Below, piece after piece: positions 4,417 to 19,434 of a stretch of DNA of 37,556 bases; position 1 is the first letter of the stretch, and every line of letters begins with the position of its first letter. The stretch comes from a bacterium (GTDB lineage: Bacteria; Patescibacteriota; Minisyncoccia; Minisyncoccales; GWA2-46-15), in NCBI GenBank assembly GCA_030704795.1, contig JAUYCZ010000021.1, positions 1 through 37,556 of the forward strand, written 5' to 3'. The notes below the pieces were generated by a model. The model was not told where the DNA came from. It was given only the letters and a program-made list of their open reading frames with translations, and did no database searches. Both the position numbers and the translations under genes were made by a program.

Positions 4417-6630
4417 ATGGAATTAAAATTGAGCCGTCTTTTGTACTACGGTTTTGCGGTGCTCGTTTTTCTCGTGCCGCTTTTCTGGCTGCCTTTTTCC
4501 TTTGAAGCCTGGGAATTCCAGAAGATCTTTTTAATTTTCTTTCTGGGTCTGGCCATCGTAATTATTTCAGCCATCGAGAGCCGCCGGGAAAACCCCGGAG
4601 GTTTTTCCTTCAAGATCCTCTGGCCGTTTGATTTCCTGGTCCTGATCTTCCTGGCCTTGGCTTTGGTTTCGGCTTTTTTCTCGGTCGATAGAATCGCCAG
4701 CCTCTTTGGGTTTTACGGCCGTTTCTCCGACGGCCTGGTCGGCCTCTTAAGTTTCATCCTGGTTTATCTTTTGGCCCGGCGGCAAAAGAACACAGATCAG
4801 TTGGTCAAGATTCTGCTGGCCTCAGGCCTGATTGTGGTCGGGTTGGCTTTCTTATCTTTGACCGGGATACTTGGTCGCTTGACTGGTTTCAACGCCACTT
4901 TAAAACAACTCAACTTTAATCCGGTTTCTCCGTCTTTTGAGGGCCTGACTTTGTTTTTGGTGCCCCTGGTTTTTTTGGCTTTCGGCTTCCTCAAAGAGAA
5001 AACCAAATTTATCTTTCTGGTTTTTTCTTTGGGCCTGATCTTTTTAGTTGATTACACTCCGGCCTGGGTGGTTTTGGGGCTGACCTCTCTTCTGGCTTTA
5101 ATTTTCCTTTTCTTAAAGAGCTTTAATGACAAGGAGGGGAACTTTCTCAGGAAAAACCTGGCGCTGGCCTTATTTTTAGTATTGGCGACTTTGGGCATCA
5201 GTTTTAATCTGAATCAAGTTGTGCCGCCGGCTTTGGTCGGCTTTCCCCGCGAAGTGACTCTGGATCAAACCACCAGCTGGCAGATCGCCCAGGATTCTTT
5301 AAAGATCAGACCTTTCTTGGGGTCCGGCCCCGGCACCTTTTTTTATGATTTTTCCCGCTTTCGTCTCGCCAGTTTCAACGACGATCCTTTATGGCAAGTA
5401 AGGTTTGACCGGCCCGTTAGCCATGTGGCAGAGATGGCCGCCACGATGGGAATACTTGGCTTGCTTTCATATTTATTGCTGATCGCGACAACAATAGTGT
5501 CTAATTTTCAATTTTCTCCCGCCTTAGGCGGGATTCAATCAAATCCCTACAAACGATTGTTACTATTCGCTTTTTTGGCGACGGTGATTGGTCAGTTCGT
5601 TTATTACCAGAACGCGGTTTTGGGATTTAGTTTTTGGCTGTTCTTGGGACTGATCGCCGGTCAGACAGGCCAAGCCAAAAGCTTATCTCTGCCCTGGCTT
5701 TCTCGGTTTAAATTGCCCAGCCCGGACAGTCTGAAGGGAAGAGTTATTTTAATGGGTTCTTTTTTGATTTTTAGTCTGGTTTTGTTTTCAATCGTCTTTG
5801 TCGGCTTTCGGGTTTATGTGGCCGATTTCTTTTACAGCCAGGCTTTTCAGTCGCCCCCGGGCGATGAGAAAAGCGCTCTCTTACAGAAAGCGGTGGTCGT
5901 CAATCCTTTCTTTGCCGAATACCAGATTATTCTAGGCCGCGCCTTATTGAATTCGGCTTTGACTGATGGGCAAAAGCCCGAGCGCAACCTAACCAAGATT
6001 TTTCAGGATTTGAGCGAGGCGGCGGCCGTGGCCAAGAAGGCCACCCAACTTTCGCCCCGGTGGGTGGCCGGCTGGGAAACCCTAGGCATGATTTACCAGG
6101 AAATTCAAGGCCTGGCGACGGGCGCCGAAAAAGCCAGCCAGCAGTCTTTTGAAAAAGCGATTGAATTAGAGCCGACCAATCCCTTGCTTTATTCCCGGCT
6201 GGGAAAAGCCTTTTTCGCCCAAGATAAGTTTGACGAGGCCCAGACGCAATTTGAAAAAGCCCGTCGCCTTAAATCCGACTTGCTCGAGCCGAAACTTTAT
6301 CTGGCTTTGATTAAGGAAAAGAAAGGGGATCTGCCCGGCGCCACCCGGGGGATGGCGCATCTGCAAGAGCTCTATCCTTTGAATGCCGATACCGCTTTTC
6401 AGCTCGGCCGGCTCTACTTTAACCAGAATCAGAACGACCCGGCTATCCAGCAGTTTAAAAAGGTTTTGACCCTCAATCCTTCTCATCTCGACAGCCTTTA
6501 TTCTTTGGCCCTGGCTTTTGAAAAAAAAGGCCAGAAAACCCAGGCTCTTTCCTATCTCAAACAGGCTCTTGAGATTAGTCCGGCTAACCCAACGCTGAAA
6601 GAAAAACTAAAAGAGCTACAGGAGCAGTAG
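4417..6630 (+). CDS. Paralogous O-antigen-ligase-like membrane protein with TPR repeats
   Basis: Same architecture as the upstream gene: PFLGSGPGTFFYDF, AFQLGRLYF, FEKAIELEPTNP. Confidence 0.75.
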   Translation: MELKLSRLLYYGFAVLVFLVPLFWLPFSFEAWEFQKIFLIFFLGLAIVIISAIESRRENPGGFSFKILWPFDFLVLIFLALALVSAFFSVDRIASLFGFYGRFSDGLVGLLSFILVYLLARRQKNTDQLVKILLASGLIVVGLAFLSLTGILGRLTGFNATLKQLNFNPVSPSFEGLTLFLVPLVFLAFGFLKEKTKFIFLVFSLGLIFLVDYTPAWVVLGLTSLLALIFLFLKSFNDKEGNFLRKNLALALFLVLATLGISFNLNQVVPPALVGFPREVTLDQTTSWQIAQDSLKIRPFLGSGPGTFFYDFSRFRLASFNDDPLWQVRFDRPVSHVAEMAATMGILGLLSYLLLIATTIVSNFQFSPALGGIQSNPYKRLLLFAFLATVIGQFVYYQNAVLGFSFWLFLGLIAGQTGQAKSLSLPWLSRFKLPSPDSLKGRVILMGSFLIFSLVLFSIVFVGFRVYVADFFYSQAFQSPPGDEKSALLQKAVVVNPFFAEYQIILGRALLNSALTDGQKPERNLTKIFQDLSEAAAVAKKATQLSPRWVAGWETLGMIYQEIQGLATGAEKASQQSFEKAIELEPTNPLLYSRLGKAFFAQDKFDEAQTQFEKARRLKSDLLEPKLYLALIKEKKGDLPGATRGMAHLQELYPLNADTAFQLGRLYFNQNQNDPAIQQFKKVLTLNPSHLDSLYSLALAFEKKGQKTQALSYLKQALEISPANPTLKEKLKELQEQ
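5503..5544. repeat. Palindrome nested in an AATTTTC repeat inside a CDS
   Basis: AATTTTC AATTTTC [TCCCGCCT-T-AGGCGGGA, 5517-5533] TTC AATCAAAT. Confidence 0.7.
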
Positions 6631-6651
6631 AAGTAGTTTAGATTTTTCTCT

Positions 6652-6709
6652 TTGACAAATATCATAAAAGATGTTATAGCGAGTACGATATATCGCTTCG
6701 CGCTATAAT
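6652..6709 (+). promoter_or_regulatory. Sigma70 promoter whose -10 box is interrupted by palindromic element A
   Basis: TTGACA 6652-6657, 17 bp spacer, then TATA[element]AT. Confidence 0.55.
6674..6708. repeat. Two-hairpin palindromic element, copy A
   Basis: TTATAG CG-AGTA-CG ATATAT CGC-TTC-GCG CTATAA. The first 22 nt are identical to copy D (19398-19419). Confidence 0.9.
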
Positions 6710-6750
6710 TTAGCATTGGAATGAAGACAGATCAAATCTAGGAGGACAGT

Positions 6751-7212
6751 ATGAATATCTGGTTCTTTCTCATCTTGCTTCTGCCCGTGGCAGGAGCTCT
6801 CGCTCTGCGATTCTGTTTGGAGCAAGCCATTAGGCGAGCCAGGGACACGACGCCGGACTGGGGGCAAGCACTGATCTGGGCGGGCAGCGGCTTGATGACG
6901 CTGTTCTTCCTGATTCTCGTGTCTCTTCTGGGCATGTGGTTCCTGAAGGCGGGAGTCATCGGCGCTGGACTGGCGCTGGTGGCGACAGTCTTTGGGCTAG
7001 TTTCGCCCGAACTCTGGACGGCGACGGCGGCCTGGCTGCGCGATCCCCGCCACCTGCCCTGGTTGGTCGTTCCCTTCGTTCTCGTTGGCCTGGTGATTTT
7101 CTTCCTGACCAACGGGAGCCTGGCGATCACCCTGATCTCCGAACTGCTCGTTCTGCTCGTGATCGGCTTGGGCATCGGCCTGATGTTCAGACCGTTCCGC
7201 CGGCGGAAGTAA
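6751..7212 (+). CDS. Hypothetical multi-TM membrane protein, GC-rich, probably horizontally acquired
   Basis: 153 aa, nearly all hydrophobic, with a basic tail. AGGAGG SD at about 6740. Visibly higher GC than the flanks. Confidence 0.7.
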   Translation: MNIWFFLILLLPVAGALALRFCLEQAIRRARDTTPDWGQALIWAGSGLMTLFFLILVSLLGMWFLKAGVIGAGLALVATVFGLVSPELWTATAAWLRDPRHLPWLVVPFVLVGLVIFFLTNGSLAITLISELLVLLVIGLGIGLMFRPFRRRK

Positions 7213-7230
7213 GACAGAATCGCAAAGCCA

Positions 7231-7269
7231 AAAGACGGGTTTCTACGAAGAAACCCGCCTTTGCTTTTT
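7231..7269 (+). terminator. Intrinsic terminator
   Basis: CGGGTTTCT-acga-AGAAACCCG stem followed by ccTTTGCTTTTT. Confidence 0.75.
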
Positions 7270-7289
7270 ACAAACTCTCAGGTCGGAGT

Positions 7290-7318
7290 TTGACAGAGTA
7301 TCAATAGGAAGATATTAT
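7290..7318 (+). promoter_or_regulatory. Putative sigma70 promoter for the 7368/7595 ORFs
   Basis: TTGACA 7290-7295, 17 bp spacer, TATTAT 7313-7318. Confidence 0.6.
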
Positions 7319-7320
7319 AA

Positions 7321-7368
7321 TTATAGCGAGCGGGACGCCGCTCGATATATCGAATCCTATTCGCTATA
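7321..7368. repeat. Two-hairpin palindromic element, copy B
   Basis: TTATAG CGAGCGG-GACG-CCGCTCG ATATAT CGAAT-CCT-ATTCG CTATA. The last A is the A of the ATG at 7368. Confidence 0.9.
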
Positions 7369-7586
7369 TGATCAAGGATTTAAGCGAATTAGTTGGATAC
7401 CTGGACCAGAAGTTTCAGGAAACGGCCAAAAAAGAAGATTTATTAAAACTCGCCCGGCGGGAAGAATTCGACGTTCCCAAAAGAGAGATTCGCGAAGATC
7501 TACGCGACCTAAAGGAAAAAGTTCAAGCGTTGACGGCTTCTGTTGATCGACTCGTTCAAGCCGTAAATAATATCAAAACCAGATAG
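7368..7586 (+). CDS. Small coiled-coil hypothetical protein, possibly C-terminally truncated
   Basis: 72 aa with a heptad pattern and an AKKEDL motif related to the next ORF. Confidence 0.6.
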   Translation: MIKDLSELVGYLDQKFQETAKKEDLLKLARREEFDVPKREIREDLRDLKEKVQALTASVDRLVQAVNNIKTR

Positions 7587-7594
7587 CGATAGCG

Positions 7595-7849
7595 ATGACG
7601 ATGAATCTTACTCCAGAAGACATCCAAAAATTGATTGAGGTTTTTGCGACTAAAGATGATTTGAAGGAAGCCACAAAAGATCTTGCTACTAAGAGCGATT
7701 TTAATGAATTAATGACCGCCATTGACGCTTATGCCAAGAAAGCAGATACTTATTTCCAGGAGATGGTGATGTTGTCGCGCAAAGTGGACCGTCATGAAAA
7801 ATGGCTTTTGCAACTGGCGGAAAAACTCGGCATCAAACTCGAATATTGA
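7595..7849 (+). CDS. Small coiled-coil hypothetical protein (ATKDDL/ATKSDF repeats); start may be 7601
   Basis: 84 aa: ATKDDLKE..ATKSDF...RHEKWLLQLAEKLGIKLEY. Confidence 0.7.
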   Translation: MTMNLTPEDIQKLIEVFATKDDLKEATKDLATKSDFNELMTAIDAYAKKADTYFQEMVMLSRKVDRHEKWLLQLAEKLGIKLEY

Positions 7850-7904
7850 AGGCGGCTTGACAACAATTGTCAAAACGTTTTATTATTATTCTAGACTTAC
7901 CCAC

Positions 7905-7933: not shown

Positions 7934-8125
7934 TAGCCCATCGCCAATTTAAATAATTTTTAAGTTAACTTGAAGCCCATTAGGCTTACTTAAAGACTTA
8001 AACCATTCTAACCCCAAGCTTTTCGGGGATTTTTTAGCTTCAAGAACCTTGCTTCGCAAGAACTTAATTTCGTCAGAAAAAAACTTGTTTATTCTCGCTA
8101 ACGCTCGAATTAGCTTTGCTCGAAA

Positions 8126-11100
8126 ATGAACGTAAAATCTTTCTCTAAGGCGAAGGTTTCTTTCCACCTTCCCTACTTAGGGTCTCTCCAGAGAGACAGC
8201 TGGCAATGGCTTCTGGAAAGAGGCATTAAAGATCTATTTGCCGAGGTTTCGCCCATCCGGGATTACACCAAAAAAGAGTTTGAACTCTGGTTTTTGGATT
8301 ACAAGCTCGACACACCCAGATACAAGGATGACTTGGAGGCCAAAAATGACAACGGTTCATACGAAGCTTCCCTGAGAGCCAAGACCCGCCTGATTAATCT
8401 CAAAACCAAAGAGGTTAAAGAGCAAGAAGTCTTTCTGGCCGATTTTCCCATTATGACCGAGAGAGGCACTTTTATTGTTAACGGCGTCGAAAGAGTCGCC
8501 ATCGCCCAGTTGATCCGTTCGCCGGGCGTTTTCTTTACCAGCCAGAGAATCGGCGGGCGTCACTATTTCGGCGCCAAGGTCATTCCCAACCGGGGCGCTT
8601 GGCTGGAAATGGAAACCGATGCCACGGGCTTTATAGGCATCAAGATTGACCGCAAAAGAAGGGTGGCCGCCACCACTCTCTTGAGGGCTTTTGGCATTGA
8701 TAATGACTTAGCCATCAAAGAGCTCTTTTCGGATATCGACAATGATCCCGACCTCAAATACCTGGACGAAACCTTAAAGAAAGACCCGACGCACAATCAG
8801 GCCGAAGCCTTGGTTGAGATCTATGAGAGACTGAGGCCGGGAGACCTAGTGACGCCGGACACGGCGCGGGAATTGATCGAAAACATGTTCTTTAACTTTG
8901 AGAGATATGACCTTTCCCGTGTGGGGAGGTGGAGGATGAATCAGCGCTTTTCGCGCGAGCGCAAAACTGGCGCAGAACCAAACGCAAAACAGACGCAGAA
9001 GTTTAGCGGAGACGAGATCACCGTCAAAGAAAGAGTTCTCCGGCCCGGGGATATCGTCGCCGTCATTCATGAGATCATCCGCTTGAACAACACGCCGGGC
9101 GCCCTGCCCGATCCGATTGATCACTTGGGCAACCGCCGCGTCAGAACCTCCGCCGAAGTTCTGCAAAACCGCATGAGAGTGGGGATGCTCCGGATGGAAA
9201 GAATCATCAAGGACCGGATTTCCACCTTAGAAGAAGGCATGCTGGCCCCTTCCCAACTCATCAACCCTCGTCCCTTAATGGCCGTCATTAAAGAGTTCTT
9301 TACTTCTAGCCAGCTCTGTCAGTTCATGGATAATGAGAATCCTCTGGCCGAGCTCGAACACAAGAGACGGTTGGCGGCGACGGGCCCGGGCGGTTTAACC
9401 CGGGAAAGAGCCGGTTTGGAAGTGAGAGACGTGCAGCCTTCGCACTATGGCCGCATCTGCCCGATTCAGACCCCCGAAGGCCAGAACGTGGGCTTGATCT
9501 CTCACATGGCCTGCTTTGCCCGGATCAATTCTTTGGGCTTTCTGGAGACCCCCTACTTTAAGGTGGAGAACGGCAAAATCACCGACGAGGTTCATTATCT
9601 CAATGCTTACGAGGAAGAAAGATATAATATTGCTCACGCCGGCACTGACATTGATAAAAACGGACACATTATTCCCGCCAAGGTGGCCGCCCGCATCAAG
9701 GGCGAGCCGGGCGAGATTGAAAAAGAAAAAATTAATTTTATTGATGTTTCTTCGAAACAAGCCATTTCCGCGGCCACTTCTTTGATTCCCTTTTTGCAGA
9801 ACGATGACGCCAACCGCGCTTTAATGGGCTCAAATATGCAGCGTCAGGCCGTGCCTCTTTTGAATCCCGAGGCGCCTTTGGTTTGCACCGGGGTGGAGCC
9901 CAAGGTGGCCGAAGACTCGGGCCAGATTCTCCTGGCCCAGGACGACGGCCGGGTGACCGAAGTCGATGCCCGCGAGATCGTCATTCAAAACACCAAGACC
10001 CGAGTTCAGACCCGTTACCAACTCCGCACCTTTGTCCGAACCAACCAATACACTTGTTTTCATCAACGCCCCATTGTCAAAAAAGGGGAGCCTGTCAAAA
10101 AGGGCCAGGTTTTGACGGATGGAGCGGCCATTGAAGATGGCTGGCTGGCCCTGGGCCGGAATATTCTCGTTTCCTTTTTATCCTGGCGGGGCTCAAACTT
10201 TGAAGACGCCATCATCATTTCGGAAAAACTGGTTAAAGAATACGTTTATTCTTCGATCCATTTAGAGAACTTTTTCTGCGATGTCAGAGAAACAAAACTG
10301 GGTCCGGAACTGACCACCGGCGACATTCCCAATGTTTCGGAAGAAAAACTGAAGGACCTGGATTCCGAAGGCATTATCCGCATCGGCGCCGAAGTCGGTT
10401 CCCACGACATCCTGGTCGGGAAAATCTCGCCCAAGGGTGAGACGGACCTGACGCCGGAAGAAAGGCTCTTGAAAGCCATTTTCGGGGAAAGAGCCCGAGA
10501 GGTCAAAGACAGTTCGCTTTTGCTCGAATACGGCAAAAGAGGCCGGGTCGTCGGCGTTAAAGTCTGGGAAAGAGAAAAGGGCGCCAAGCTCGAACCCGGC
10601 ATCATTAAAAGAGTTCAGGTGGAAGTGGCCGCCCTGCGCAAGATTCAGGCCGGTGATAAATTAGCGGGGCGCCATGGCAACAAAGGCGTCGTTTCTCTGG
10701 TTTTACCCGAAGAAGAAATGCCCTTCCTGGAAGACGGCACGCCCGTGGACATTATTCTCAACCCTTTGAGCGTCGCTTCCCGCATGAACCTGGGCCAGAT
10801 TCTGGAGACGCATTTGGGTTTAGCCGCCAAGAAGCTGGGCTACCGGGCCGTTTCCCCGGCCTTGCTCGGCGCCAACGAAAAAGACATCAAAGAGGAATTG
10901 ATTAAGGCCGGCTATCCCGCCGACGGCAAATTGCAGGTCTTTGACGGCCGGACCGGCGAACCCTTCCCGGGAAAGATCACCGTCGGCTATATCTATATGA
11001 TGCAGCTGATCCACATGGTCGAAGACAAACTGCACATGAGATCGATCGGCCCTTATTCCCTGATCACCCAACAGCCCTTGGGCGGTAAATCCCAATTCGG

Positions 11101-19332: not shown

Positions 19333-19373
19333 ATAGCGATCACGATATATCGGGCGGAGTACCGCCCGCTATA
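19333..19373. repeat. Two-hairpin palindromic element, copy C (inverted relative to B)
   Basis: ATAG CG-ATCA-CG ATATAT CGGGCGG-AGTA-CCGCCCG CTATA. Confidence 0.9.
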
Positions 19374-19397: not shown

Positions 19398-19434
19398 TTA
19401 TAGCGAGTACGATATATCGAGCTCTGCTCGCTAT
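19398..19434. repeat. Two-hairpin palindromic element, copy D
   Basis: TTATAG CG-AGTA-CG ATATAT CGAGC-TCT-GCTCG CTAT. Confidence 0.9.

Follow-up and report, generated by a model that had tools for sequence, protein, structure and literature searches.

Background

Several classes of small dispersed repeat come close to the family described here. Prokaryotic MITEs such as RUP, ERIC and Nezha are, like it, non-autonomous and intergenic, with terminal inverted repeats, a short target duplication and stem-loops; MITEs are said to span 50-800 bp and to have inverted ends no shorter than 10-15 bp (PMC11602168), and they are described as able to inactivate or rewire promoters (PMC10969869). The Correia elements of Neisseria (CREE, nemis) are likewise non-coding, dispersed and transposon-like, with inverted ends. 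Those ends begin TATAG and are flanked by TA, and the element borders can form -10-like boxes, much as in the present family. A length of ~104-157 bp is given for Correia elements (PMC3184786), and published accounts place them mostly 5' of genes, infer their mobility from strain comparisons, report effects on promoters, and attribute to them long inverted ends, an IHF site and strong promoters of their own (PMC3184786, PMC10969869). REP and REPIN sequences, again like the family at issue, are tens of bases long, form imperfect GC-rich hairpins with variable tips, and occur in high and variable copy number with tandem or clustered copies. Enzymes acting on folded single strands, at the ends of IS200/IS605-type elements and at integron attC sites, recognise hairpin feet that contain a fixed mismatch; the hairpin tips are free to vary. 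IS200/IS605-type elements insert beside a fixed tetranucleotide, and integron cassettes insert at attI.

Patescibacteria (CPR bacteria) have tiny genomes, few recognisable regulators and few classical insertion sequences, and the literature searched by title and abstract yielded no description of repeats of the present kind in them. Compared with MITEs, the direct duplication of our family (AT, 2 bp) lies within the expected 2-10 bp, but its bodies (27-51 bp) and terminal complementarity (6-8 bp, ATAGCG/CGCTAT) fall below the size and inverted-repeat limits, and no related autonomous element, transposase or parent insertion sequence with matching ends was found among the five Pfam families searched. 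As the family is beneath the limits of MITE-finding pipelines, such elements have probably been under-counted. Correia elements, as described, are set apart from it by its shorter body and ends, by its having no detectable -35 and by a duplication of AT rather than TA. It is REP-like in being an imperfect palindrome with a stable hairpin in many copies; in contrast to REP/REPIN-RAYT systems, it has a 2-bp duplication, weakly avoids convergent (3') spacers, and is not the repeat that flanks the RAYT-like gene of its host. With IS200/IS605 ends and attC it shares conserved feet, a fixed mismatch and variable tips, and it differs from them in having no associated TnpA or integrase gene and in its constant AT and preference for TATA.

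An interrupted extended -10 promoter

The window, 37,556 nt long, is the whole of contig C15 in a 636,697-bp assembly (G000), 46% G+C, from an ultra-small groundwater bacterium of the Patescibacteria. Read directly, positions 6652-6709 have the order reported in a preliminary description made from the window: TTGACA, 17 nt closing with TGT, TATA, 25 nt and TATAAT (Table 1). Conceptual removal of 29 nt leaves TGTTATAAT at 17-nt spacing, that is TTGACA-17-TGtTATAAT, and the description's claim that this deletion restores an ideal promoter is confirmed by the orthologous site of a congener (G007), which is that promoter, scoring 12/12 with TG in a consensus scan. By the sigma-70 extended -10 criterion (TTGACA, 17 nt, TGnTATAAT) G007 carries a promoter as it stands, and the window does so only after the conceptual removal; run on the window, the same scan leaves the split site without a promoter call.

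On the right of the insert, TATAAT is rebuilt by virtue of the element's terminal T. This hexamer is now 46 nt from the -35 and has GAGTAC at its 17-nt position; so situated it has no usable -35 and no TG. Examined by eye in both orientations, the element shows no built-in -35 at 16-19 nt ahead of the border TATAAT. A cruciform or loop joining the old -35 to the regenerated -10 was considered and rejected: the 25-mer is a poor palindrome overall and this short copy folds no better than shuffled sequences (z = -1.2).

We propose, with a probability of roughly 0.85, that 6678-6704 together with one flanking AT entered a consensus extended -10 promoter as an insertion, and that the inserted element is the smallest in a mobile family of tiny, non-coding palindromic repeats. 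The element would have entered at A2T3 of the -10 hexamer in the promoter TTGACA-17-TGtTATAAT of a small membrane-protein gene, leaving the -35 followed at 17 nt by TATAGC and shifting the regenerated TATAAT 29 bp downstream, away from any -35.

At 6637-6665 the window, unlike G007, has a weak promoter-like sequence (TTTAGA-17-TATCAT, 9/12) that overlaps the old spacer; where the window reads TATCAT, G007 reads TAACAC. The site may be fortuitous or may serve as a compensating start.

Table 1. Features of the split promoter and of the repeat family in the window, and sites filled in one of the two compared genomes and empty in the other
Feature	Position	Strand	Observation
-35 hexamer TTGACA of the interrupted promoter	6652..6657	+	read directly; same base for base in G007, there paired with TATAAT at 17 nt
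Spacer, 17 nt, ending TGT (6672-6674); extended -10 TG at 6672-6673	6658..6674	+	spacer in G007 also 17 nt with TGT end
TATA left of insert	6675-6678		read directly
Residual left half-promoter TATAGC	6675..6680	+	T1 and A2T3 of the old -10 plus the element's first bases; lacks the critical final T; unscored by consensus scan
Putative left copy of duplicated AT	6676..6677	+	from filled/empty pairs and from AT being almost invariant at either flank of family members
Element body, 27 bp, AGCGAGTACGATATATCGCTTCGCGCT	6678..6704	+	shortest subtype, both arms cut to AGTA and CTTCG; 50.4 bits, E 2.5e-13 to model R1; missing in G007 ortholog
25-mer GCGAGTACGATATATCGCTTCGCGC	6679-6703		read directly
Regenerated TATAAT	6704..6709	+	element's last T, AT and old AAT; read directly
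Putative right copy of duplicated AT	6705..6706	+	as for left copy
Shine-Dalgarno AGGAGG of downstream gene	6740..6745	+	read directly
Downstream gene, 153-aa hydrophobic protein	6751..7212	+	ATG at 6751; by eye ~4 membrane-spanning segments; no Pfam family
Second promoter TTGACA-17-TATTAT (11/12)	7290..7318	+	immediately upstream of second family copy
Second family copy, AT + 41-bp body (7325-7365) + AT	7323..7367	-	two hairpins; between promoter and ATG at 7368
Third family copy, body 19335-19370	19333..19372	+	spacer between ssb and 225-aa ORF
Fourth family copy, body 19402-19432	19400..19434	+	27 nt from third copy
Filled in G000, clean empty in G007	C15 6674; C17 37108; C2 7361		
Filled in G007, clean empty in G000	L098 17184; L100 13985; L094 10140; L098 7852		
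Filled in G007, untidy in G000	L096 15008		

The empty allele in a congener

A DNA search of the genus placed the ortholog of window positions 5600-7268 in G007, at 78% identity. The spacer aligns base for base on both sides of a single gap of exactly 29 nt, placed at the insert, where the empty allele reads TTGACAAATAACACAGACGGTGT joined directly to TATAATTTGTCATTGG. Entry of the element into a -10 box, as first suggested from the window, agrees with this intact ortholog, which lacks exactly 29 nt at that point. The preliminary description had proposed a search for the empty allele, and held that its absence from every relative, joined with normal initiation from the occupied allele, would refute the proposed reading; the allele is present in G007 and again in a metagenome contig (L108) found with the membrane protein as query. 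That contig, the sole locus returned by the contig scan, is identical to G007 over the spacer and hence adds no independent lineage. In another study, a contig (X2 record 2) carries the occupied allele with 1 difference.

A family of small two-hairpin repeats

Within the window the exact 25-mer has no second match, even when up to 3 mismatches are allowed (1 match, 0 expected). The core CGATATATCG occurs four times, at 6686, 7343, 19343 and 19410, against 0.48 occurrences expected, and all four cores sit between ATAGCG and CGCTAT. Core search and alignment gave 24 clear copies in G000; nhmmer (E<0.01) counted 27 there and 25 in G007. Scores of the G000 copies under the covariance model R1 reach 62.6 bits. 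Between two flanking ATs, the body (27-51 bp) consists of AGCG, an arm X, the core, an arm Y and CGCT, each arm being a 4-5-nt loop (AGTA, CTTCG), a GC-rich hairpin (e.g. GGCGG-AGTA-CCGCC) or, in some copies, an AT-rich hairpin. Across the 24 aligned G000 copies the core GATATATC is invariant, the ends ATAGCG/CGCTAT are nearly so, and one hairpin pair covaries (GC 12, AU 9, CG 2, unpaired 1). Full-length copies fold as single-stranded DNA into two adjacent hairpins (z = -3.6 to -5.3) with conserved feet, ATAnCG/CGnTAT, that contain one mismatch each, and with tips that vary freely and stay paired. The right half of the body at 6678-6704 is identical to G000:C30:98899-98924.

When 41 related genomes were scanned with R1, all 7 congeners matched (both strands counted: G006 1, G004 2, G001 15, G003 33, G007 37, G002 62, G005 96), and outside the genus matches were appreciable only in G033 (25) and G034 (4), which belong to two other families of the order. 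An exact 20-mer of the repeat family was found at 16 loci in 4 assemblies, all titled as Patescibacteria lineages. Against Rfam 15 the whole window at gathering score returned 2 tRNAs only, and positions 6550-7450 at E<=1 returned 0 matches.

Tandem arrays occur in G007: three non-identical copies at L069 2612-2721 and two at L097 10671-10748, with a single AT common to each junction. Elsewhere in that genome (L066 7937-8095) one family copy is interrupted by four tandem 16-nt units.

Filled and empty sites

Almost all of G007 (527 kb) was covered, and the flanks of every copy were compared with G000 in both directions. For the 27 G000 copies examined, both flanks could be paired in 11, comprising 3 clean empty sites in G007, 2 sites occupied in both genomes and 6 complex cases; for the 25 G007 copies examined, 18 could be paired, comprising 4 clean empty sites in G000, 1 untidy site, 2 occupied in both and 11 complex cases (Table 1). 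A further pair comes from a metagenome contig (X5 record 19), which joins window position 7321 to 7365, skips the 43 nt of the second window copy and contains 4 ambiguous letters; it represents an environmental relative that has this site empty. The total is nine filled/empty pairs, eight of them between G000 and G007 (one untidy). Mobility of the element, which the preliminary description took to be supported by the single site at 6679-6707, is thus borne out by a dispersed family and eight further pairs. On these comparisons the family gains and loses copies in both the G000 and the G007 lineage, and its 2 shared orthologous copies place its origin before their split.

In one copy occupied in both genomes (G000:C27 6070-6117 and L065 8611-8650) the hairpin parts differ by indels and substitutions between flanks that are 88-90% identical; the copy may have been replaced or converted, or a second element may have inserted at that position.

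The pairs also define the duplication. In the cleanest, the filled site CCAGTA[ATAGCG...CTCGCT]ATATGCC corresponds to the empty site CCAGTAATATGCC; in clean pairs the net insert exceeds the body AGCG...CGCT by 2 (29, 43, 38, 36 and 36 nt), and 6 of the 7 empty alleles read have AT at the site. The description that best fits these alignments is a 2-bp duplication of AT, flanking a 27-bp body AGCG...CGCT at the split promoter, with blunt insertion of TAGCG...CGCTA into A^T as a possible alternative. The TATA/TA duplication put forward earlier fares less well: were TA duplicated around GCG...CGC, empty sites would be 2 nt longer than they are in the two cleanest pairs, and a 4-bp TATA duplication is not a general rule, the 4-mers being unequal in most clean pairs (AATA/TATA, TATA/TATG, TATA/TATC, TATA/TATT). 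The accompanying caveat, that a palindromic TATA makes a target duplication indistinguishable from the element's own inverted ends, is right for this site taken alone and is overtaken by the other family members, which favour AT.

The same comparisons bear on whether the repeat is instead a functional cis-regulatory module, either the operator of a global DNA-binding protein or a 5'-leader RNA hairpin, such that 6652-6709 would be regulated and not broken. Copies do lie in gene-upstream spacers: the 21 that could be classified comprise 16 in tandem, 5 in divergent and 0 in convergent spacers, with six more inside over-long ORF calls, and several sit directly between a promoter and a start codon. 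Convergent spacers make up 12.7% of spacer bases, so that the avoidance is weakly supported (p ~0.06 for 0/21, calculated by hand). Covariation in the hairpin also points to selection on the structure, or to its transmission. Against a regulon, no common function links the neighbouring genes (dnaA, ssb, mfd/GGDEF, tgt, GH1, GDH, ABC-F, PBPs, L25, L10, an ECF sigma factor and others), copies in tandem spacers face the downstream gene in both orientations (6 versus 10, our own reading), arm lengths between the conserved blocks vary in a way ill-suited to a fixed protein site, and Rfam offers no match. Most copies are unshared between two congeners whose flanks are 75-97% identical, match numbers run from 1 to 96 inside one genus, and orthologous promoters are perfect consensus without the element in the consensus scan. 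Given heterogeneous neighbours, both orientations, variable internal spacing and presence/absence between congeners, we rejected operator or leader RNA as the primary nature of the element and regard a cis-regulatory module as a very unlikely account of this locus.

Target preference and a second split promoter

Pre-insertion sites were reconstructed for 45 unique non-tandem copies from G000, G007 and sampled loci of other genomes, and compared with 4786 intergenic AT sites of G000. With orthologous pairs counted twice and a background drawn from G000 only, T-AT-A is found at 15 of the 45 reconstructed sites versus 5.3% of intergenic AT sites (p = 6e-9), and a perfect TATAAT overlaps 9 of the 45 versus 3.4% (p = 2e-5). 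TATA targets are therefore preferred, which makes -10 boxes natural targets. Whole promoter-like sites (at least 10/12) are not significantly enriched at targets (3/45 versus 2.5%, p = 0.10); two of those three are perfect 12/12 promoters with TG, namely the site at 6652-6709 and one at G000:C13 9009.

The latter (9009-9058) likewise reads TTGACA-17(TGT)-TATA[...]TATAAT. Its counterparts in G001, G002 and G003 are intact, TTGACA-17-TATAAT/TAATAT, ahead of a conserved ~130-nt non-coding stretch, and G000 and G005 carry different element subtypes there, at different offsets. Together with the preference for TATA, this second case shows that splitting of -10 boxes is recurrent and a consequence of that preference.

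It also bears on the direction of change at 6652-6709. Because the membrane gene is carried by one independent lineage besides the host, G007 and contig L108 counting as one, the locus has no outgroup, and we infer insertion in the G000 lineage and not loss in G007. Were the split state the older one, G007 would have regained its promoter through a precise loss of 29 bp, whether the element was excised or slippage took place between the TATA repeats. A family older than the G000/G007 split, and short direct repeats around a hairpin, which favour precise deletion by replication slippage, speak for such a loss, as does the missing outgroup. A deletion that yields a 12/12 promoter with TG, however, presupposes an earlier insertion into just such a -10 box, and at the C13 site, where three congeners are intact and two have different subtypes at different offsets, repeated insertion fits better than repeated precise loss. 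We consider loss in G007 unlikely, and take insertion in the G000 lineage as the working direction.

The ~130-nt stretch itself (G000:C13:9081-9211; L005 2555-2685) lies between the consensus promoter and a GGDEF gene, is present in five congeners at up to 89% identity, and has long-range complementary ends, GGTCTACTGAC...GTCAGTAGGCC. Rfam returned nothing for it at E<=0.01. We regard it as an unannotated candidate for a structured RNA.

Search for a mobilising enzyme

Five transposase Pfam families (PF13358, PF01548, PF00665, PF07282 and PF01797) were sought in all 8 genomes of the genus, and none co-occurs with the repeat. DDE_3 was found only in G000, IS110 and rve essentially only in G002, and TnpB gave no match above the cut-off. 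Y1_Tnp is present in 7 of the 8 genomes, with counts that run opposite to repeat copy number: G005, 87% complete, has 96 R1 matches and 0 Y1_Tnp, and G004 has 2 matches and the most Y1_Tnp (7). On either side of the G000 Y1_Tnp gene stands a different palindrome, GTAAAGTATCAGATACTTTAC, which belongs to another repeat family. This RAYT-like gene (G000:C17:34704-35417; L008 79-792) encodes 238 aa with an HFH motif.

The architecture of the hairpin feet suggests that a mobilising enzyme would recognise folded single-stranded DNA. A broader conjecture, doubtful as it stands, is that these repeats constitute a hitherto undescribed class of 'nano-transposon', a 27-51 bp two-hairpin element that would be moved by an unrecognised and possibly host-encoded enzyme reading the hairpin feet in single-stranded DNA, would duplicate AT and seek TATA (-10) targets, and would serve gene-poor CPR bacteria as a general device for the reversible rewiring of promoters and leaderless starts. 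The enzyme that mobilises the family is in any case a concrete target for discovery. A family of 27-51 bp that is gained and lost between sister species, and that can cut a promoter or part a promoter from a leaderless start, would be a cheap source of regulatory variation, and annotators who meet short palindromes in CPR promoters have reason to read them as insertions and not as operators.

Consequences for the downstream genes

The final T of the -10 hexamer is one of the two most important bases of sigma-70 promoters. TATAGC lacks it, and the rebuilt TATAAT has GAGTAC as its -35 and no TG, so the promoter of the membrane gene should be much weaker than the uninterrupted one; its perfect -35 and TG motif may keep TATAGC partly active. 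The scan of the window revealed no terminator-like site between the upstream TPR gene (4417-6630) and the membrane gene, and read-through could therefore still express the latter. The membrane gene would then be expressed weakly or by read-through, and read-through could explain why the insertion was tolerated. Silencing or switching of the membrane gene, as the preliminary description suggested, is plausible on the sequence of the locus.

Precise loss of 29 bp would restore the promoter, through the mobilising enzyme or through replication slippage between the short direct repeats across the hairpin. This raises a stronger version of the switching idea, in which the 29 bp leave and reinsert often enough within a population to toggle the gene as a phase-variable on/off switch. 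Both allele states exist in nature, excision would yield an ideal promoter, and the family prefers TATA targets. The two states, however, occur in different species (78% identity) and not in one population, which looks like a fixed difference rather than phase variation; the contig of another study repeats the occupied state, and contigs hide minority alleles. We think a working switch quite unlikely.

The second window copy illustrates another outcome. In the empty allele of X5 at 7290-7370 the ATG would follow ~7 nt after the -10 box, a leaderless arrangement; dnaA (G000:C17, GTATAAT-6 nt-ATG) also looks leaderless. Insertion between the promoter and the ATG would convert what is probably a leaderless mRNA into one with a structured leader and no Shine-Dalgarno sequence. 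At some places, of which 7323-7367 is an example, inserted copies will be transcribed as leaders.

Among the 7 congeners the membrane gene was found in G007 only. The stretch ~6631-7900, which contains it and two small ORFs, is missing in G001, in which the rpoB leader comes directly after the TPR gene, and is partly present in G007, without ~7243-7610. Its absence from G001 fits an accessory membrane gene, and the stretch appears to be an accessory islet between conserved genes.

Upstream of rpoB lies another repeat, ~69 nt long (8042-8110), which corresponds to a clean gap in the G007 ortholog and has an 89%-identical copy at G000:C17:9868-9938 and further copies in G002; by these comparisons it represents a second, putatively mobile, repeat family with an empty site.
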